Of a DNA stretch of 64,000 nt, positions 13,736 to 59,388 are shown one piece after another. Source of the stretch: Longimicrobiales bacterium (GTDB taxonomy: Bacteria > Gemmatimonadota > Gemmatimonadetes > Longimicrobiales > Gaopeijiaceae). The position numbers were made by a program, and so were the translations under genes. The notes beneath the pieces were generated by a model. The model was not told the DNA's origin and searched no databases. It was given only the letters and a program-made list of their open reading frames with translations. Every line of letters begins with the position of its first letter. The stretch's first letter is position 1. The DNA lies in contig OZ242947.1 in assembly GCA_965211645.1 (NCBI GenBank), positions 2,459,864-2,523,863 on the forward strand, given 5' to 3'.

Positions 13736-14260
13736 TCATAGCGTCCGATTCTCGATTCCGGTTGACACCACACCCTCAAAGAGAACCACACGGCCCTTGA
13801 GCGCCCCAAATGGCAAACAGCTGATCACCCGGGTCATATTCCGGTTGCTCAAGCGCACGAGGCCGGTACTGCGCGAGTGTCTGGTCCAGCCCCTATTGAC
13901 GCAATGGTGCACCACTTCGTCGAGAACATCTGTTTGGGCACCGGCATCCCAAATGGCCACACGCATCCTGTTCCTGCCTCGTAGCACTTCCAAGATTGTG
14001 GAGCCGACCTCCGGGATGAAGGGCAACCCAGCAGGATACCGACCAACCGGCTTCTCCGCAGTGTGGGACCACCAAAGCCGTACTCGCTCCCTGTTCGCTG
14101 TACGGATCGCGGCCGCGATTCTGTCTTCCAGCTTCCAGCCACCAACGCGCAGACCGCCATGTCGAAACCGAAAACGCCCGCTCTCTCTGTTTCGCAAGTT
14201 CTCAATGATCTCATCTACCCAAGCGAAATCAAAGCCCGATACCGAGTCGCTAGCAAACAT
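13736..14260 (-). CDS. hypothetical protein, last gene of the thioredoxin / Cys-peptide / propeller cassette
   Basis: GGAGG sits 5 nt before ATG 14260. 174 aa with no motif I recognise. Lower-GC region. Confidence 0.45.
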   Translation of the reverse strand: MFASDSVSGFDFAWVDEIIENLRNRESGRFRFRHGGLRVGGWKLEDRIAAAIRTANRERVRLWWSHTAEKPVGRYPAGLPFIPEVGSTILEVLRGRNRMRVAIWDAGAQTDVLDEVVHHCVNRGWTRHSRSTGLVRLSNRNMTRVISCLPFGALKGRVVLFEGVVSTGIENRTL

Positions 14261-14320
14261 GGTTGCCCCCTCCACTCATAGCACAGGGAGCGCCTTCACA
14301 AAGTGCTGCCAATCGGTTCC

Positions 14321-15210
14321 TCATGGGTCACGGATTCTGTAGACATCAACTCCCTTTGTTCCACCCAGAGCCGATGTGTGCGCACGTTCTACGAGCATCG
14401 CTACCAACGGTCCTTCAATCGCGAGGGCAAGCACCCGATCACGCACCTTAACCTGCACCGGTTCTCCCTCTCGGCTGAGAATATCGATTCTGGTGCTGTC
14501 GCGTTGAAAGCTAGGCAATGTAGTGGCCACCCACAAGCGATCTCGGCCGTCTACGGCAAATCCCCAGGGCGTGAAGACGGGCATGGGCTTTCGCCGAAAA
14601 CTGTCCAGCGCGCTACGAAGCGCTTCACGGTCAAATGGGATACCGGATTGCCTGGCCGCATCCTCGATATTCGATCTTTGGCGTGCTAGTTCGATGTCCG
14701 TTGGCAACCGCACGGTCATTGACGGCCCGATGGTGCGAAGCAATCGCCCATCGGGCACCGCGCGTTTCTCGATTGTGTAGTCACTCGGCCCAGTCCCCGC
14801 ATACAATGCTCCCGTCGTGTCTGCGACTACCGGCACTACGCCTGTCTCAGCATTTGTGAGGACAAAGAGGGTCTTCGCCGTCATCTCACCTTGCCGCAAT
14901 AGTCCGACCGAAGGCAAGGCTTTATCTCCGAAAAATGGGGTCCACACAGCCAGCACTTCGTCCGCGCTTCCCCCGAGCAGGTGTACCGGCATCCCAGGTA
15001 TCCCACTGAATCTAACTGCCGTCGCTGCCTGGACGTCAGCAAAAAAGGTCGCACTTGGTGGCTTTGCATCTCCTACCAGGAGCTGACGTGACACACCGGT
15101 CCCTGCCACGAGTACTGGCCATCCGAACTCTCCAGGCCCCTCGCCCTGTCGACCAACCACTCCTTGTCCTGCACCACTGGTGTCAAACAAGGATACTGTT
15201 CCATCCCGTG
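14321..15210 (-). pseudogene. 3' portion of a 6-bladed beta-propeller gene split by IS21 copy 1
   Basis: RDGTVSLFDTSG...GEGPGEF... to VDVYRIRDP*. It joins in frame to 17609..17346 once the IS and one copy of the target duplication are removed. Confidence 0.8.
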
Positions 15211-15333
15211 TGTCAATGGGCATCGAAAATCTGACACATCTGGGCAGCGAAAGTCGGACACTCGGAGAGACGGCCCGCGGAGGGAGCGAAGCGACCGGAG
15301 CGGGGCGTCTCGGTAGGGTCTGTGAGGTACGCA

Positions 15334-16152
15334 TCATGGGGTCTCACCGTGGCCGGTGTGTTCGGCCGAGCGAGCCCGGGCTGCGGTCGGGTGGATGGCC
15401 TTGGAGAGTTCGGTGTGTCGGCGCATGCGGTAGCTGTTGCCGCGGATGTTGACGATGTGGCAGCGGTGGAGCAGCCGGTCCAGGAGCGCGGCCGCCATGA
15501 CCTCGTCGTGGAGGATCTCGCCCCAGCGCTCGAAGCCCTGGTTCGAGGTGAGCACCGTTGAGGCGTGCTCGTAGCGTCGGTTGACCAACTGGAAGAAGAG
15601 GATGGCACCGCTCCGGGTGACCGGGAGGTAGCCGATCTCGTCGACGACCAGGAGCGCGGGGTAGGTGAGGGTCTTGAGGCGTTGGTTCAGACGGCCGGCG
15701 GCTTGGGCCTCCTCGAGCGAGTCGATCAGGTCGGTCAGGGTGCCGTAGTAGACCTTCCGGCCGCTTTGGGCCGTTGCGATGGCCAGGCTGATGGCCAAGT
15801 GGGTCTTGCCGACACCGGGGGGGCCGAGGAAGATGACGTTCTCCTTGCGCTCGACGAAGCCGAGCTCGTGCAGCGAGTCGATCTGCTCCCGCTTGACTGA
15901 GGGCTGGAAGCTGAAGTCGAAGTCCGCGAGCGTCTTGATCGCCGGGAGCCTGCTCGAGCGCATCGCGGTCTGCAGGCGGCGGCTGTTGCGAAGGGTGATC
16001 TGAGCGTTGAGGAGGCGCTCGATCGCTTCTGCGGCGGTCGTACCTCCTCCATCCACCCCGGCGAGGATCTCGTCCAGCGCCTCCAGGGCGCCCGGCATCT
16101 TCAGGTCGGCCAGCTGGGCCGCAATGCGTTCACGGCGCGAGAGCGGCTTCAC
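15334..16152 (-). CDS. istB: IS21 helper ATPase IstB
   Basis: GTGA overlap with istA. Walker A GPPGVGKTHLA and Walker B LLVVDEIGY. 272 aa. Confidence 0.9.
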   Translation of the reverse strand: MKPLSRRERIAAQLADLKMPGALEALDEILAGVDGGGTTAAEAIERLLNAQITLRNSRRLQTAMRSSRLPAIKTLADFDFSFQPSVKREQIDSLHELGFVERKENVIFLGPPGVGKTHLAISLAIATAQSGRKVYYGTLTDLIDSLEEAQAAGRLNQRLKTLTYPALLVVDEIGYLPVTRSGAILFFQLVNRRYEHASTVLTSNQGFERWGEILHDEVMAAALLDRLLHRCHIVNIRGNSYRMRRHTELSKAIHPTAARARSAEHTGHGETP

Positions 16153-17189
16153 TGGATGTCTCCCGTGATCCGGGCGTATGCGGCCAACGGGCGTCGCTCG
16201 ACGTCCACGACGGGTGAGACCGCCGCTGTCCGAGTCCGACGCGCCCCTTGCGGCTCAGCTCTCGGCGCCACGGGGCGGTACAGCCAGGGAGTCAGAGGCG
16301 TTAGATGCGGGCGCTCCCGCTCGAAGCGGTCTGCTGGCCTTTCCCTGAGCGTGCCGTGGATCCGGACGTTGGCTTCGCCATCGAGCCACTGCAGCACCCG
16401 AGCGTTCAGATCGTCGTCTGAGACGAAGTTCCGGCCGTAGAAGAAGCTCTCGCGGACATACCGGATCGGCCGCTCCACCTTGCCCTTCGTCTGCGCCCGG
16501 TAGGGGCGGCACGCCCGGATCCGGAAGCCCCAGTGGTGGCTGAAGCGCAGGAACTCCGGGTTCTCGACCAGCCGGCCCCCTTCCCCGCGCCCGTCCCGGT
16601 TGATCACCGCCTTCATCTGGTCGAACAGCAGCTCCGAAGGGACGCCGCCGAAGTACCGGAACGCCGCTTCGAGGCCCCGCATCACCACCGGCATCGTCTG
16701 CCGCTCGTAGTAATGCAGCCACATCAGCCGAGAGTACCCCAACACCACGATGAGCGCGTGCCGCTTGCCCCACGGCAGCCGGAAGTCCGCGAAGTCCACC
16801 TGACCCTGATGGCCCGGAGGGGTCTCGAACCGTCGCACAGGCTCCTCTGGAGGCCGGGGCCGAACCTGTCGAACGTACCGCTTCACCTGGCTGTAGCTAC
16901 CCGGGTACCCTGCGGCCTGAACCTCCTTGAACAGCCGCGTGGCCGTCAGCTTCGGATACTCCGCCAACCGCGCTTCAATGATCGCCTTGTAGGGGTCCAG
17001 CTTCGACGGCACTGGCGGCCTCGGCCGGTATCTCACCGCTTCCCCGTCCAGATCCCGGTCCAACTGTCCCGTCGCGATCCAACGATAGATCGTGTCGCGG
17101 CTCACGCCCACCTGCCGGGCGATCGCCGCCTTCGTCATGCCCTGCTCGAGATAGTGGCGTAGAAGCACCCGCTTCTCTCTCCCAATCAT
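16149..17189 (-). CDS. istA: IS21 transposase IstA
   Basis: GGAGG sits 5 nt upstream of ATG 17189. N-terminal HTH (IARQVGVSRDTIYRWI), DDE-type integrase core (QVDFADF...). The longer listed ORF extends beyond the IS end. Confidence 0.85.
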   Translation of the reverse strand: MIGREKRVLLRHYLEQGMTKAAIARQVGVSRDTIYRWIATGQLDRDLDGEAVRYRPRPPVPSKLDPYKAIIEARLAEYPKLTATRLFKEVQAAGYPGSYSQVKRYVRQVRPRPPEEPVRRFETPPGHQGQVDFADFRLPWGKRHALIVVLGYSRLMWLHYYERQTMPVVMRGLEAAFRYFGGVPSELLFDQMKAVINRDGRGEGGRLVENPEFLRFSHHWGFRIRACRPYRAQTKGKVERPIRYVRESFFYGRNFVSDDDLNARVLQWLDGEANVRIHGTLRERPADRFERERPHLTPLTPWLYRPVAPRAEPQGARRTRTAAVSPVVDVERRPLAAYARITGDIQ

Positions 17190-17345
17190 CGCGCCTCCAG
17201 TGCTGAATGGAGACGCCAGTGTAGAGCGAGGTCCGGTCAACCTCACGAACTCTCTGATCCACCGCCGAACCCGACCCCCGAACAACCACCCGAAATGTCC
17301 GACTATCGACGGCCACGTCTGTCTTATTTTGCATGGCCGCCAACA

Positions 17346-17609
17346 CCGTGGGTTCGGCACCGCAATTCGGTCCGATCCGACCCACGCGATACTGTGCGCG
17401 GGAGAAAACTCTAGCGATACCAGCTCCCCTACGAAGGTCAAAGCATGGACTCTCCTCGGTTCCGGGAGGGCGGCATTCCGGTCATGCGTCCGGCCGCAGC
17501 CAGGGTTGCACAATATCGCGACCGTAGCAAACGCAACAGCCACCCGTGAGAAGGCACATCGTTCCGATGCAGAGTACACTGCTGCATTCCGCTCCCTATT
17601 GTCTGTCAC
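17346..17609 (-). pseudogene. 5' portion (signal/lipoprotein region plus first blade) of the IS21-split beta-propeller gene
   Basis: The GTG start overlaps the stop of the upstream Cys-peptide gene (GTGA). ...VAFATVAILCNPGC...LTFVGELVSLEFSPAHSIAWVGSDRIAVPNP runs to the IS junction. Confidence 0.7.
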
Positions 17610-17863
17610 GACTCACCAGACTCCTCACTTGGATTCCATCCGCAACCTGTCATGCATCCGTCAAACATGCCGTGGCAGAATTCCAGATTCTGATATTCCC
17701 ACATACAACCGCCCCAGACGCCACTGCAGGTGATTATGCAGAACACACCGGGCGGCAGGTGGGCCGATGCGGGCCGTGGCTGCTTCCCAACCGCCATGCA
17801 AAAACAAACGACCGCAACAACGAGTCGCAGGGTCTTTCTCTTTGTTTCTAGTGCTCTCGACAT
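17606..17863 (-). CDS. secreted six-cysteine mini-protein B (85 aa)
   Basis: AAGGAGG SD before ATG 17863 with a spacer of about 6-7 nt. Signal-like LRLVVAVVCFCMAVG. Core C-x3-C-x6-C-x9-C-x6-C-x3-C with a GCMTGC tail. Paralogous to 17931..18179. Confidence 0.6.
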   Translation of the reverse strand: MSRALETKRKTLRLVVAVVCFCMAVGKQPRPASAHLPPGVFCIITCSGVWGGCMWEYQNLEFCHGMFDGCMTGCGWNPSEESGES

Positions 17864-17930
17864 GATTCTCCTCCTTCCCTGTCTTGTCATGGAAGCGAAG
17901 ACGCCCCAACCATGGAGGCGAATTTACGCC

Positions 17931-18179
17931 CTACTTGGGAAGCATGCACCCGATCATGCAACCGGTGAAATAGCCAGCGCAGTAGTCGGGGCTACTGTCT
18001 GGGCCTGTACAGTCCTCCACCGTCTTGATCCCGCAATAGACAAGGCAGGGGTGAAGCATGGGGAACTGTGCTTTGGCCTCACGGACGGTGAGCAGCGACT
18101 GCGCTGTCACCCCCAGTGCAAGCGACAGTGCTACTGCTAGGCGGACGCTTCGGTAGGTTCCTCTTGTAATCCGATTCAT
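17931..18179 (-). CDS. secreted six-cysteine mini-protein A (82 aa)
   Basis: ATGA overlap with the thioredoxin gene stop, GGAG upstream. Signal peptide RLAVALSLALGVTAQS. Core C-x3-C-x7-C-x9-C-x6-C-x3-C with a GCMIGC tail. Confidence 0.6.
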   Translation of the reverse strand: MNRITRGTYRSVRLAVALSLALGVTAQSLLTVREAKAQFPMLHPCLVYCGIKTVEDCTGPDSSPDYCAGYFTGCMIGCMLPK

Positions 18180-18820
18180 CGTGCATGCTCCTCGTTGTGT
18201 GTTTGTCCGGTGCGCAGCGCTTTGGTCGTTTCGTCTTCGATGGTGGAGAGAACGACTCGAATGTGCTGCTTGTTGAGAAGGCCGGAATGGTGAAAGAGTA
18301 TTCGTCCTTCCCGACCGATCAATATCGTTGTCGGGACGAGATGTGTGTACATGTATTGGAAAAACGCGGTGGGACTGACCGGCTGGTAGACCGGCAAGTG
18401 TCCGCCCGCATATTGGAAATATGTTGATACATTTGGAGTTAGCGATTCAGGGGTTACCCCCACCACCTCGGATCCCCGCTGCCTAGCCTGTTCGCCCAGG
18501 GTCAACCACTCGGGTTTCGCGGAAGCACACGCAGGACAGTCTGATCGAAAAAGGAACACCAGAGTTGTCGCGCTACCGGCAACCGGAATGGGATGGGCTG
18601 TCTCGAAACTGCTGATGAGCACGAGACTATCAGCTTCAAGCATTGAGTCTGCCGGAAGCTCGGCAGCAATGAAGTCGTTCGGGCGAGCGGGGCCATGCAC
18701 GGATTCAAGGTACATCCAGCCGGCGGCAAGGATTGCGGCAATCGTGGCGAGGTCTATCGCTCGGTCCAGAATGCCACGCCCTATGGAAGAATGACTCGCG
18801 TTCATCAATGTGTGCCCCAT
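18176..18820 (-). CDS. membrane-anchored TlpA/ResA-like thiol:disulfide oxidoreductase (thioredoxin fold, CPAC)
   Basis: N-terminal TM IDLATIAAILAAGWMYL. TLVFLFRSDCPACASAKPEW active-site block and VPTTILIGREGRI cis-Pro block. Confidence 0.75.
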   Translation of the reverse strand: MGHTLMNASHSSIGRGILDRAIDLATIAAILAAGWMYLESVHGPARPNDFIAAELPADSMLEADSLVLISSFETAHPIPVAGSATTLVFLFRSDCPACASAKPEWLTLGEQARQRGSEVVGVTPESLTPNVSTYFQYAGGHLPVYQPVSPTAFFQYMYTHLVPTTILIGREGRILFHHSGLLNKQHIRVVLSTIEDETTKALRTGQTHNEEHAR

Positions 18821-18857
18821 TCGCCCCCAAGCTTCTCAAGTGGACCATCCGTCCGCC

Positions 18858-19061
18858 TCACGCCTCTGTATTGGAGTGGTACGAAGGGTCCGATCTGTTT
18901 AGTCCGGTCGGTCGACCTGTATTTGACTTGCGGTTGCATCCAGCGGGACTCGTCCAATCCCCCTCCACACTTGGGTCCGCGGCCACACGCCCCGTCGCCT
19001 CCGGGTTCCATGGCTCGCCCAGGTAGGCGGCGCAGAGCACCAGACACGAGACGGCGACCAC
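18858..19061 (-). CDS. possible small exported protein upstream of the thioredoxin gene (weak call)
   Basis: GTG-initiated 67-codon ORF with hydrophobic N-terminus VAVSCLVLCAAYLG, ending 37 nt before the TlpA-like start. No other support. Confidence 0.2.
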   Translation of the reverse strand: MVAVSCLVLCAAYLGEPWNPEATGRVAADPSVEGDWTSPAGCNRKSNTGRPTGLNRSDPSYHSNTEA

Positions 19062-19102
19062 CGCTTTCGGCAGCGGTACGCAGGGCGTCCGTCACGGCCG
19101 TT

Positions 19103-19415
19103 CTAGCGCGACTGTTCGATCAGCTCGGCGAGTTGTTTCTCGTTCGCCTATCCGACGTGCTCCCCGAGCCGGTTAGAGATCGTCGTGGTTTCGGTCACCC
19201 GGAGCGCCTCTCCGAATCTCGTGTCTTCCTCCAGGCTTTCGTCCCGCTGCTTCCGCTCCTGAGGCAGCGTTCGGACGCAACCAGGTCGTCCACGCCGGCT
19301 TTCTCGGCGAGCGTCCTCCAATCTCCGGTGTCCCGCCACTGCATCGACTCGAAGAGAAGCGAGTGTAAATGTGGGAAGCGTCCCTGCTCCTCCGCGCAGA
19401 TCGCCGCGCGCGCGG
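19103..19415 (-). pseudogene. DsbA-like (Thioredoxin_4-type) gene remnant with a frameshift and an internal stop
   Basis: Two frames read AAICAEEQGRFPHLHSLLFESMQWRDTGDWRTLAEKAGVDDLVASERCL and then ...EALRVTETTTISNRLGEHVG*ANEKQLAELIEQSR*. The N-terminal CxxC part is missing. Confidence 0.45.
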
Positions 19416-19420
19416 CGGGC

Positions 19421-19600
19421 TCAGGACGACTTGACCGCCACGAAGTGCACGGGTCGGATCCTACGCCGCCTCCGTGATCGCCTCCGCGTCGGTCGCGTCA
19501 TTCTTGCCCCAGTCGACGAACGGCTTCGCGTAGATCGCGGGAACCAGAATCGAAAGCGAGTCGCCCGGGCTACACGATTGGCGATCCCTGTCGACAGGCG
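19421..19600 (-). mobile_element. IS110-family transposase N-terminal remnant (frameshifted)
   Basis: SILVPAIYAKPFVDWGKNDATDAEAITEAA* then, after a frameshift, RPVHFVAVKSS*. This matches the conserved IS110 block (P..VKPF....KND..DAEAI.EA..RP.MRFV.VKS). Confidence 0.5.
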
Positions 19601-19640
19601 CTGTCTGGCCCACGCCTCCTGCTCGTATCTTTGATGCCTG

Positions 19641-56841: not shown

Positions 56842-57091
56842 CGTTGACCGGGTCACGCCGGCCCGGATCACCACACGCCGTGATAGCGTTCCGCTCCTGA
56901 CCGCGGCCGCCCCGCCAAGTACCGCTGCCCCTATGCCCCCACCTCAGCCGACCCCGAACCGGCCCCCGTGTCAATGGGCATCGAAAATCTGACACATCTG
57001 GGCAGCGAAAGTCGGACACTCGGAGAGACGGCCCGCGGAGGGAGCGAAGCGACCGGAGCGGGGCGTCTCGGTAGGGTCTGTGAGGTACGCA

Positions 57092-57910
57092 TCATGGGGT
57101 CTCACCGTGGCCGGTGTGTTCGGCCGAGCGAGCCCGGGCTGCGGTCGGGTGGATGGCCTTGGAGAGTTCGGTGTGTCGGCGCATGCGGTAGCTGTTGCCG
57201 CGGATGTTGACGATGTGGCAGCGGTGGAGCAGCCGGTCCAGGAGCGCGGCCGCCATGACCTCGTCGTGGAGGATCTCGCCCCAGCGCTCGAAGCCCTGGT
57301 TCGAGGTGAGCACCGTTGAGGCGTGCTCGTAGCGTCGGTTGACCAACTGGAAGAAGAGGATGGCACCGCTCCGGGTGACCGGGAGGTAGCCGATCTCGTC
57401 GACGACCAGGAGCGCGGGGTAGGTGAGGGTCTTGAGGCGTTGGTTCAGACGGCCGGCGGCTTGGGCCTCCTCGAGCGAGTCGATCAGGTCGGTCAGGGTG
57501 CCGTAGTAGACCTTCCGGCCGCTTTGGGCCGTTGCGATGGCCAGGCTGATGGCCAAGTGGGTCTTGCCGACACCGGGGGGGCCGAGGAAGATGACGTTCT
57601 CCTTGCGCTCGACGAAGCCGAGCTCGTGCAGCGAGTCGATCTGCTCCCGCTTGACTGAGGGCTGGAAGCTGAAGTCGAAGTCCGCGAGCGTCTTGATCGC
57701 CGGGAGCCTGCTCGAGCGCATCGCGGTCTGCAGGCGGCGGCTGTTGCGAAGGGTGATCTGAGCGTTGAGGAGGCGCTCGATCGCTTCTGCGGCGGTCGTA
57801 CCTCCTCCATCCACCCCGGCGAGGATCTCGTCCAGCGCCTCCAGGGCGCCCGGCATCTTCAGGTCGGCCAGCTGGGCCGCAATGCGTTCACGGCGCGAGA
57901 GCGGCTTCAC
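57092..57910 (-). CDS. istB: IS21 helper ATPase IstB (copy 2)
   Basis: Translation identical to 15334..16152. Confidence 0.9.
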   Translation of the reverse strand: MKPLSRRERIAAQLADLKMPGALEALDEILAGVDGGGTTAAEAIERLLNAQITLRNSRRLQTAMRSSRLPAIKTLADFDFSFQPSVKREQIDSLHELGFVERKENVIFLGPPGVGKTHLAISLAIATAQSGRKVYYGTLTDLIDSLEEAQAAGRLNQRLKTLTYPALLVVDEIGYLPVTRSGAILFFQLVNRRYEHASTVLTSNQGFERWGEILHDEVMAAALLDRLLHRCHIVNIRGNSYRMRRHTELSKAIHPTAARARSAEHTGHGETP

Positions 57911-58947
57911 TGGATGTCTCCCGTGATCCGGGCGTATGCGGCCAACGGGCGTCGCTCGACGTCCACGACGGGTGAGACCGCCGCTGTCCGAGTCCGACGC
58001 GCCCCTTGCGGCTCAGCTCTCGGCGCCACGGGGCGGTACAGCCAGGGAGTCAGAGGCGTTAGATGCGGGCGCTCCCGCTCGAAGCGGTCTGCTGGCCTTT
58101 CCCTGAGCGTGCCGTGGATCCGGACGTTGGCTTCGCCATCGAGCCACTGCAGCACCCGAGCGTTCAGATCGTCGTCTGAGACGAAGTTCCGGCCGTAGAA
58201 GAAGCTCTCGCGGACATACCGGATCGGCCGCTCCACCTTGCCCTTCGTCTGCGCCCGGTAGGGGCGGCACGCCCGGATCCGGAAGCCCCAGTGGTGGCTG
58301 AAGCGCAGGAACTCCGGGTTCTCGACCAGCCGGCCCCCTTCCCCGCGCCCGTCCCGGTTGATCACCGCCTTCATCTGGTCGAACAGCAGCTCCGAAGGGA
58401 CGCCGCCGAAGTACCGGAACGCCGCTTCGAGGCCCCGCATCACCACCGGCATCGTCTGCCGCTCGTAGTAATGCAGCCACATCAGCCGAGAGTACCCCAA
58501 CACCACGATGAGCGCGTGCCGCTTGCCCCACGGCAGCCGGAAGTCCGCGAAGTCCACCTGACCCTGATGGCCCGGAGGGGTCTCGAACCGTCGCACAGGC
58601 TCCTCTGGAGGCCGGGGCCGAACCTGTCGAACGTACCGCTTCACCTGGCTGTAGCTACCCGGGTACCCTGCGGCCTGAACCTCCTTGAACAGCCGCGTGG
58701 CCGTCAGCTTCGGATACTCCGCCAACCGCGCTTCAATGATCGCCTTGTAGGGGTCCAGCTTCGACGGCACTGGCGGCCTCGGCCGGTATCTCACCGCTTC
58801 CCCGTCCAGATCCCGGTCCAACTGTCCCGTCGCGATCCAACGATAGATCGTGTCGCGGCTCACGCCCACCTGCCGGGCGATCGCCGCCTTCGTCATGCCC
58901 TGCTCGAGATAGTGGCGTAGAAGCACCCGCTTCTCTCTCCCAATCAT
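57907..58947 (-). CDS. istA: IS21 transposase IstA (copy 2)
   Basis: Translation identical to 16149..17189. The listed 599-aa ORF reads through from higA. Confidence 0.85.
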   Translation of the reverse strand: MIGREKRVLLRHYLEQGMTKAAIARQVGVSRDTIYRWIATGQLDRDLDGEAVRYRPRPPVPSKLDPYKAIIEARLAEYPKLTATRLFKEVQAAGYPGSYSQVKRYVRQVRPRPPEEPVRRFETPPGHQGQVDFADFRLPWGKRHALIVVLGYSRLMWLHYYERQTMPVVMRGLEAAFRYFGGVPSELLFDQMKAVINRDGRGEGGRLVENPEFLRFSHHWGFRIRACRPYRAQTKGKVERPIRYVRESFFYGRNFVSDDDLNARVLQWLDGEANVRIHGTLRERPADRFERERPHLTPLTPWLYRPVAPRAEPQGARRTRTAAVSPVVDVERRPLAAYARITGDIQ

Positions 58948-59103
58948 CGCGCCTCCAGTGCTGAATGGAGACGCCAGTGTAGAGCGAGGTCCGGTCAACC
59001 TCACGAACTCTCTGATCCACCGCCGAACCCGACCCCCGAACAACCACCCGAAATGTCCGACTATCGACGGCCACGTCTGTCTTATTTTGCATGGCCGCCA
59101 ACA

Positions 59104-59388
59104 CCCCGCCCGATTCGGCTCGATATCGAGCTCGCCCTCGCGCCCCCGCGTGCGGGCAATGTCGTAGGACGACTGCATGCGCATCAGCGTGTCCATCCTG
59201 ACCTCGAACGCCTTCTCGATACGCAGCGCCATCATCCCGGACAGGTCCGACCGGCCATTCAGAAACGTCGAGAGCGCGGGCCGGGACACGCCAAGCACTT
59301 TCGCGGCGGCGGCCACAGCCAGACCGTGCGGCTCGATCACCTCGGTCTTCACGAATGCACCGGGGTGTGGAGGATTCAGCATGCGCAT
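59104..59388 (-). CDS. higA: HigA-family (XRE HTH) antitoxin whose last 11 codons were severed by IS21
   Basis: MRMLNPPHPGAFVKTEVIEPHGLAVAAAAKVLGVSRPALSTFLNGRSDLSGMMALRIEKAF. The native 3' end (AGSGSAEVGA*) lies at 56931..56968, on the other side of the IS. Confidence 0.75.

Follow-up and report, generated by a model that had tools for sequence, protein, structure and literature searches.

A low-GC cassette encoding a putative thioredoxin-fold oxidoreductase, two six-cysteine mini-proteins and a predicted NHL propeller in a Longimicrobiales bacterium

Methylamine dehydrogenase has a small subunit whose partner is a large beta-propeller subunit. Maturation of this small, disulfide-rich exported subunit depends on MauD, a dedicated membrane-associated thioredoxin-fold protein with a CXXC motif (bioRxiv 10.64898/2026.03.05.709764). 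Thioredoxin and propeller also meet in NHLRC2 and SOQ1, where a TlpA-like domain is fused to an NHL propeller and the redox motif lies at the interface (PMC6107167; bioRxiv 10.1101/2021.03.16.435614). Here we describe a cassette of five genes in a 64,000-nucleotide stretch of a Longimicrobiales genome (assembly GCA_965211645.1, contig OZ242947.1, positions 2,459,864 to 2,523,863), referred to below as the window. All five genes are on the minus strand, in the order thioredoxin, peptide A (Pep1), peptide B (Pep2), propeller and a protein of 179 amino acids (aa). Our preferred reading, which we hold tentatively and at slightly less than an even chance, is that the cassette is a mobile cell-envelope operon whose dedicated oxidoreductase secures non-consecutive disulfides in mini-proteins that partner the propeller.

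The cassette follows the gene logic of MauD, MauA and MauB, namely a thioredoxin, a small cysteine-rich protein and a propeller, but no sequence relationship to the Mau proteins was detected. Its mature peptides are 45-50 aa long with three putative disulfides, as against approximately 130 aa and six disulfides in the Mau small subunit. They lack a conserved tryptophan column and hence the tryptophan pair of the quinone cofactor, the propeller is predicted to be of the NHL type where that of Mau is seven-bladed, and neither MauE nor MauG was annotated among the called genes of the loci. With NHLRC2 and SOQ1 the common elements are a TlpA-class thioredoxin fold and an NHL propeller. The SOQ1 pair is also membrane-anchored, in a compartment topologically equivalent to the periplasm, and its redox motif faces the binding surface of the propeller. 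In the cassette, however, thioredoxin and propeller are encoded by separate genes that enclose the two peptide genes, and CPAC takes the place of CC(I/V)NC. Chains of NHLRC2 and SOQ1 were absent from the PDB matches, even at E = 10 with the propeller profile and at E = 1 with the thioredoxin profile. TlpA, ResA and CcmG (DsbE) resemble the cassette thioredoxin in its assigned fold, its candidate N-terminal anchor, a CxxC motif with proline in second position and a cis-proline loop; unlike theirs, its gene does not stand among genes for cytochrome c or copper proteins, and its candidate substrates are the products of adjacent genes. The cassette resembles both a MauD-type folding unit and a split NHLRC2/SOQ1-type protein, and is a member of neither group.

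A preliminary description of this DNA had reported three minus-strand genes in a patch of low G+C content (GC), joined by short overlaps, and these details were confirmed. The TGA stop of the thioredoxin gene overlaps the ATG start of Pep1 (ATGA), the Pep2 open reading frame (ORF) is preceded by GGGAAGGAGGAGAATC-ATG with an AAGGAGG ribosome-binding site, and the Pep2 TGA overlaps a GTG at 17609 (GTGA) that opens the propeller frame. The cassette genes have 55-60% GC and a third-position GC (GC3) of 0.56-0.67, compared with 67-70% and 0.84-0.94 for the neighbouring host genes and insertion sequence (IS) genes, and approximately 68% GC for the window overall. The cassette is a compositionally foreign, horizontally acquired five-gene island. 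Its counterpart at a metagenomic locus, L003 (1997-4900), is also a low-GC island (51-58% GC vs 65-67% in the flanks). Because the island stands out in two different hosts, we argue that the five genes move as a unit, and the donor lineage seems to be lower in GC than either host.

Related loci in other contigs carry the same partners. L003 has the full set (a CPAC thioredoxin, then two peptides in succession, a 374-aa propeller and finally a 161-aa gene) and is co-linear with the window by tblastx, the match jumping exactly across an IS that splits the window's propeller gene. In L001 a CPAC thioredoxin and two peptides are followed by one propeller, and after it come a third peptide and the beginning of another propeller. 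A peptide stop there overlaps the start of the second propeller gene, and the peptide and propeller pair has been duplicated as a unit. L005 has a CPVC thioredoxin followed by a peptide. Two Joint Genome Institute (JGI) contigs have a 195-aa gene, a gene of approximately 70 aa and a peptide; one of the 195-aa genes has a weak Redoxin match, and one of the contigs continues with a gene of at least 269 aa that is cut by the contig end. A thioredoxin-like gene directly precedes the peptides wherever their upstream surroundings can be seen, and a cassette-type NHL propeller follows them wherever the downstream surroundings can be seen. The exception was L004, a contig of 52% GC (ENA ERZ25039545 contig_87511), in which two or three tandem six-cysteine modules without signal peptides occupy overlapping frames at 1715-2362, beside IS1595 fragments; these could be a frameshifted multi-module protein or decayed copies.

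To find relatives of the peptides, 1.84 billion representatives were searched exhaustively with HMMER, the mature domains serving as queries. Apart from the two query proteins, this gave five true relatives and three artefacts caused by repeats. A seven-sequence profile used in a word-index search added one more, while a first search with two sequences had found the window's own proteins only. These six relatives are singletons of 61-85 aa from metagenome assemblies; six cysteines are present in all of them and a predicted signal peptide in five. Six-frame scans of their contigs gave five additional peptides and brought the family to approximately 13 members, every one of them on a metagenome contig and with the six cysteines preserved. 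A scan of metagenome contigs for the EYCAG motif yielded no confirmed relatives. All proteins of L003 and L001 that were looked up were singleton clusters among approximately 15 billion sequences. Three proteins of these loci (P0012, P0014 and P0018) were missed by the searches, so the family is undercounted; it is clearly rare all the same. Two proposals of the preliminary description gained support from these loci. The first was a family constrained on its cysteines, and the six cysteines and the signal peptides are indeed retained among the further relatives. The second was a tie between thioredoxin and peptides, and a homologous CP[AV]C gene does precede the peptides in L001, L003 and L005. 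None of the outcomes that the preliminary description had named as fatal to its hypothesis was observed.

The 214-aa product of the first gene is assigned on sequence to the thioredoxin fold of the TlpA/ResA/DsbE class, with a putative role in thiol-disulfide exchange. Both a CxxC site (the CPAC in LVFLFRSDCPAC) and a cis-proline loop (VPTT) are present, and the alignment of the four homologues (window, L003, L001 and L005) conserves FR[ST]DCP[AV]C and [VL]P[TA]T. A profile of these four sequences matched the solved structures 2l5o, ResA (3c71, 1st9), DsbE (3gl3) and CcmG at E = 2e-5 to 4e-2 over approximately 100-115 residues; the NCBIfam models for ResA and DsbE scored 17-20 bits, below their cut-offs of 123-170. 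The N-terminal segment AIDLATIAAILAAGWMYL is a candidate membrane anchor. Its residues 21-39 are hydrophobic (mean Kyte-Doolittle 1.44) with basic residues ahead, and this was judged heuristically to be an anchor with the domain outside. A word-index protein search with the thioredoxin gave no match, even though its 39%-identical L003 homologue P0012 is in the collection, and this negative is therefore unreliable; the collection contains both window peptides and neither the 214-aa nor the 179-aa protein. No confirmed relatives came from a thioredoxin-motif scan of JGI metagenome contigs, and no match from scans of viral contigs with two queries or from plasmid tblastn with the thioredoxin and a peptide.

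Two further genes were seen directly upstream of cassette thioredoxins. At L003 (1225-1869) it is a second, divergent thioredoxin-like gene with a single-cysteine CAHS motif and a weak AhpC-TSA match (E = 0.059), and at L001 (2887-4689) it is a gamma-glutamyltranspeptidase gene, which may be there by chance or in connection with thiol metabolism.

The six-cysteine pattern occurs in the six-frame translation of the window only at the two in-frame sites of Pep1 and Pep2, and did not occur once in 50 shuffled windows. The scaffolds are C-x3-C-x7-C-x9-C-x6-C-x3-C in Pep1 and C-x3-C-x6-C-x9-C-x6-C-x3-C in Pep2, with a common tail of C-x-G-[YM]-F-x-G-C-M-x-G-C, and the two are paralogues with 30% identity (BLASTP E = 4e-7). 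Their N-termini are Sec-like by rule of thumb, with a basic start, a hydrophobic core of 11-12 residues and an AxA site just ahead of the cysteine domain. Among the peptides of the window, L001 and L003, approximately every second predicted mature form has glutamine as its first residue, directly after the AxA site (AKA|Q, AEA|Q, SSA|Q, AAA|Q, VAA|Q); going by these sequences, pyroglutamate formation would be possible. When seven trimmed cysteine domains were aligned, the only invariant columns were the six cysteines and the glycine before Cys5, and methionine or tryptophan is conserved after Cys5. No Pfam or NCBIfam family matched the peptides at cut-off, and an exact-sequence look-up held no record for Pep1. 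With no Pfam or NCBIfam model and no literature found, the family is undescribed. One candidate for Pep2, DUF3551 (PF12071), was rejected; it scored 19.6 bits against a cut-off of 26.5, and only one of eight family members gave any match to it.

The peptides fall into two types. Those in position 1 (type A) have the x7 spacing and EYCAGY[FW]xGCM, and those in position 2 (type B) have the x6 spacing and [DE]FCxGxFDGC[MW]. Homologues P0006 and P0007 are 43-47% identical to Pep1 in the mature part, Pep2 groups with the position-2 peptides of L003 and the two JGI contigs, and the homologues overall are 25-47% identical. Peptides of the same type from different loci are more alike in sequence than adjacent peptides of one operon. 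The duplication is therefore old and both copies have been kept, and this retention suggests, from the sequences, that A and B act together.

A pair of adjacent paralogues kept together, with highly variable surfaces outside the cysteine scaffold, would also suit a two-peptide bacteriocin or toxin comparable to plant alpha-hairpinins or class IIb two-peptide bacteriocins. On this account A and B form a disulfide-stabilised antimicrobial that the thioredoxin folds, and the propeller, the 179-aa protein or both provide self-protection. A Sec signal, however, reaches only the periplasm in a diderm cell, and the cassette contains no exporter, double-glycine leader or lysis gene. The duplicated peptide and propeller of L001 do resemble toxin-immunity pairs, but a propeller of approximately 380 aa would be unusual as an immunity protein, and no match to an immunity, PADLOC or Pfam family was obtained for the 179-aa protein. 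Residence on a mobile low-GC island fits a toxin as well, as does the Cx3C...Cx3C helical hairpin, which is the scaffold of the antimicrobial alpha-hairpinins (PMC11591084, PMC7191063), whereas the extreme rarity of the family does not. We consider a toxin unlikely, and the results give no reason to prefer free secretion to a periplasmic partnership with the propeller.

An AlphaFold2 (AF2) model of Pep1, based on an alignment of eight sequences, predicts two helices (residues 42-56 and 64-79) at a predicted local distance difference test (pLDDT) of 83-89. In the model one face of helix 1 carries Cys45 and Cys49, one face of helix 2 carries Cys74 and Cys78, and Cys57 and Cys67 flank the loop. 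Counted from the loop pair, the other cysteines are 8 and 12 residues back and 7 and 11 forward, a symmetric spacing from which we infer, on the model, three nested disulfides (C1-C6, C2-C5, C3-C4). A GxxxG-like pair in helix 2 (Gly69 and Gly73) fits tight helix packing. Small Tim proteins and plant alpha-hairpinins have the nearest known architecture, a Cx3C...Cx3C helical hairpin. Alpha-hairpinins and other twin-CX3C proteins resemble the predicted helix-loop-helix with a Cx3C on each helix facing the other (PMC11591084). In comparison with alpha-hairpinins and small Tims, the cassette peptides are bacterial, predicted to be Sec-exported and equipped with a third pair of cysteines, one on either side of the loop. 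Sequence homology to these proteins was not detected; a Foldseek search with the Pep1 model found no match at E < 3, and a PDB sequence search with the peptides none at E < 0.1.

The placement of the cysteines on one face of each helix in the AF2 model could instead serve Cu(I) or Zn binding by periplasmic mini-proteins of the Cox17 or Csp type, which the TlpA-type thioredoxin would reduce before metallation. The studied members of the TlpA/ResA/DsbE class are reductants, and TlpA reduces ScoI and CoxB, a role cited in PMC6107167 (reference 40 there). The conserved methionine or tryptophan after Cys5 would also be in keeping with a metal site, but there are no conserved histidine or aspartate ligands, only cysteine and glycine being invariant, and the even, symmetric spacing suits a disulfide ladder better. 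No copper or cytochrome genes were found in any locus, and a nearby MerR/TipAS regulator belongs to host DNA outside the island. We regard metal binding as quite improbable.

The propeller gene is of the NHL type on sequence criteria, but in the window it is not intact. The preliminary description had named the adjoining frame a 6-bladed beta-propeller gene; the propeller proved to be an integral, co-inherited part of the cassette and more than a neighbour, and an IS21-family element cuts its gene after codon 86. Neither this split nor the fifth conserved gene had been noted before. What is listed as an ORF of 486 aa joins 86 propeller codons by chance to the IS21-family transposase. When the IS and one copy of the target-site duplication are removed, the two propeller parts (Table 1) join in frame to give a 382-aa protein, which shares 46-47% identity with the propeller of L003. 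It follows that the insertion is recent and that the gene is intact apart from it. The element ends in TGT...ACA with a 5-bp duplication at each copy, as is characteristic of IS21. Its istA matches the NCBIfam IS21 transposase model NF033546 (298 bits), and its istB matches NCBIfam NF038214 (278 bits) and Pfam IstB_IS21 (267 bits). By blastn, 15210-17347 and 56968-59105 form a 2,138-bp block of 100% identity, and the second identical IS copy, at 56969-59103 and approximately 42 kb away, is flanked by CCCCG on both sides. Given two identical copies with their own duplications, one of them splitting the propeller gene, transposition in this genome is recent or ongoing. A plasmid megablast with the IS gave no match, and the exact-sequence look-up held no record for IstB. 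Because the propeller is interrupted, with possible polar effects on the downstream gene, the module in this genome is probably crippled and not fully functional.

Table 1. Positions in the window of the cassette genes, the inserted element and the adjoining upstream stretch
Feature	Position	Strand	Remarks
TlpA/ResA-class thioredoxin-fold oxidoreductase (putative), 214 aa	18176-18820	-	ORF; motif FRSDCPAC
Pep1, position-1 (type A) precursor, 82 aa	17931-18179	-	Predicted signal peptide and mature domain of ~45 aa
Pep2, position-2 (type B) precursor, 85 aa	17606-17863	-	AAGGAGG site upstream
Propeller, 5' part, codons 1-86 plus one base	17351-17609 (259 nt)	-	GTG start; alignable to the L003 and L001 propeller N-termini
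Target-site duplication CCGTG, right copy	17346-17350	.	Flank comparison
IS21-family element, 2,135 bp	15211-17345	-	istA 16149-17195, istB 15334-16152
Target-site duplication CCGTG, left copy	15206-15210	.	Flank comparison
Propeller, 3' part	14321-15210	-	Frame restored on removal of the IS
Fifth cassette gene, 179 aa, without signal peptide	13736-14275	-	Low GC3, 0.65
Non-coding or decayed stretch upstream of the cassette	18850-19420 (approx.)	-	Stops in all three frames

A profile of the three cassette propellers matched the NHL domains of TRIM71, Thin, TRIM2, TRIM3 and Brat at E = 3e-25 to 8e-7, in 2-6 stretches. Between two blades, at propeller residues ~258-293 (window ~14590-14700), a two-helix insert is predicted with low confidence, and a segment matching it is present in the L003 and L001 propellers.

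With the propeller profile we scanned one genome per species and obtained 44 loci, mostly in metagenome-assembled genomes (MAGs) of Gemmatimonadota, Longimicrobiales, Aminicenantes and Fermentibacteria. The cassette propellers score above 350 bits with the cassette profile and the 44 genome relatives at most 62 bits, and none of these 44 loci has a six-cysteine peptide or the cassette thioredoxin subfamily. The peptide family, the thioredoxin subfamily and the propeller subfamily therefore occur only together. An earlier comparison with Bacteroidota, where small peptides were said to recur beside six-bladed propellers, did not survive: at approximately 68% GC, and with its nearest propeller relatives in MAGs of Gemmatimonadota, Longimicrobiales and Aminicenantes, the window would by these two features alone be placed in a host that is probably Gemmatimonadota-like.

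The nearest named family is PF17170 (DUF5128), to which the window propeller is a borderline match. Distant relatives at L012, L013 and L018 pass its cut-off with 47.9, 42.3 and 31.1 bits and, like the cassette, have small secreted cysteine-rich ORFs nearby. The cassette propellers are nonetheless a separate subfamily; hhalign related them to the clear PF17170 member of L018 at 97.5% (E = 8e-12). A comparable arrangement is that of L012 (Aminicenantales MAG JBEKVN010000008.1, 5501-7280), where a secreted twin-Cx6C mini-protein with four cysteines is followed by a propeller (47.9 bits with PF17170, 44.4 bits with NHL), which shares an ATGA overlap with a Redoxin/AhpC-TSA protein (32.3 bits) carrying a CPSC motif. 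A membrane protein and an ABC ATPase are encoded downstream. The partner set is the same as in the window, while the peptide family and the phylum differ.

Small ORFs of 71, 72 and 110 aa with signal peptides and many cysteines adjoin the PF17170 propellers of L018 (5743-7853, a Gemmatimonadales MAG), L013 (1933-3499) and L022 (both Gemmatimonadetes MAGs). At L018 a 207-aa CLSC protein stands between the ORF and the propeller; it was considered as a thioredoxin and rejected, its match not being significant (hhalign E = 0.12). A literature search found no publication on PF17170, DUF5128 or NVEALA and nothing useful on BF3164.

Cysteine-rich small ORFs beside PF17170 propellers at L013 and L018, together with the strict co-occurrence and coupling of peptide and propeller in the cassette, raise the question of whether the propeller is an enzyme. 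Its substrates would then be the peptides, as in a ribosomally synthesised and post-translationally modified peptide (RiPP) system, with the propeller carrying out a cyclisation, cleavage or cross-link and the thioredoxin managing the thiols. Six-bladed propellers do include enzymes (PMC6107167), and the N-terminal glutamine in about half of the predicted mature peptides would be in keeping with this reading. No catalytic motif was identified in the propeller, however, its best sequence relatives are protein- and RNA-binding NHL domains, and no conserved residue at either terminus of the peptides marks a modification site. We judge RiPP-like maturation to be very improbable.

We return to the preferred reading of a dedicated folding operon. 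After Sec export and signal cleavage, each mini-protein of approximately 45-50 aa would fold as an antiparallel helix-loop-helix stapled by the three nested disulfides. DsbA favours consecutive cysteines as they emerge, and non-consecutive bonds need an isomerase or reductase. Two Cx3C pairs would mis-pair easily under DsbA and would thus require a dedicated thioredoxin. The anchored TlpA/ResA-class protein, with its domain in the periplasm, would prevent or resolve wrong pairings, in a manner comparable to MauD. Peptides A and B would then act with the propeller, a probable lipoprotein, as small partners or ligands that are not freely released. Coupling of peptide and propeller is proposed because of the stop-start overlaps, the strict co-occurrence, the duplication of the pair as a unit in L001 and the separate propeller subfamily, and coupling of thioredoxin and propeller because of the overlap at L012 and the NHLRC2/SOQ1 fusions.

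Several points weigh against this reading. The sample is small, with seven loci that are all singletons, and the disulfides, their connectivity and the contacts of the peptides with thioredoxin and propeller are all things that we infer. The Pfam Redoxin model gave the thioredoxin 23.8 bits, under its cut-off of 26.6, and AhpC-TSA gave 16 against 26. The reconstructed 382-aa propeller reached 21.0 bits with PF17170, under the cut-off of 22.9, and its single-sequence AF2 model had a mean pLDDT of 35 and was unusable. The propeller N-termini resemble lipoprotein signals in L003 (LWLGGC) and L001 (GGAAC), and do so less in the window (ILCNPGC), whose lipobox (NPGC) is not canonical. The signal peptides were assigned by rule of thumb, and the empty Foldseek search offers the Pep1 model no structural counterpart. 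The model does not explain the role of the cytoplasmic fifth gene. Proteins of the TlpA, ResA and CcmG type are classically reductants, and by analogy the thioredoxin could hold the peptide cysteines reduced instead of aiding their pairing.

The comparison with L012 points to a broader proposal, which we put forward as a low-probability one. TlpA-like thioredoxins with NHL/PF17170 propellers would form a wider, undescribed class of envelope modules, a split bacterial counterpart of NHLRC2/SOQ1. As natural clients they would have disulfide-stapled alpha-hairpin mini-proteins from their own operon, of the six-cysteine kind here and of the twin-Cx6C kind in L012. The recurrence of a thioredoxin with an NHL propeller in the cassette, the Aminicenantales locus and NHLRC2/SOQ1 suggests a conserved functional pairing. 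If the wider class is real, these operons name candidate substrates for the thioredoxin-propeller pairing of animals and plants, and a bacterial operon that supplies them would make the chemistry of the pairing testable. To our knowledge, only a handful of systems with substrate-dedicated periplasmic oxidoreductases are known. Probable clients as small as approximately 45-50 aa, encoded beside the enzyme, could provide a clean model for non-consecutive disulfides outside the general Dsb pathway, and the putative three-disulfide helical hairpin is a compact scaffold that could be engineered. The weight of these prospects is limited by the extreme rarity of the cassette, its partial inactivation in this genome and the putative nature of its function.

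The fifth gene is conserved with the cassette. Its 179-aa product has a homologue in L003, encoded by the 161-aa gene that occupies the corresponding place (BLASTP E = 4e-17), and it had no match in Pfam, NCBIfam, PADLOC or PDB; the PADLOC search with defence-system models was negative throughout. At the island boundaries no flanking direct repeats were found, the 64-kb window contains no tRNA genes, and a promoter and terminator scan gave sites no more numerous than in shuffled sequence.

The stretch immediately upstream of the cassette (Table 1) had been described as a decayed DsbA-like gene. That resemblance was by eye only, and a DsbA remnant gained no statistical support: there was no Pfam match at E <= 0.1 and no DsbA among the PDB matches at E <= 10. 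Beyond it, an ORF at 19461-19613 on the minus strand, ending in ...KNDATDAEAITEAA, has no Pfam match and looks by eye like the N-terminal region of IS110-family transposases. If truly IS110-like, it would be a further mobile-element scar at the island edge.

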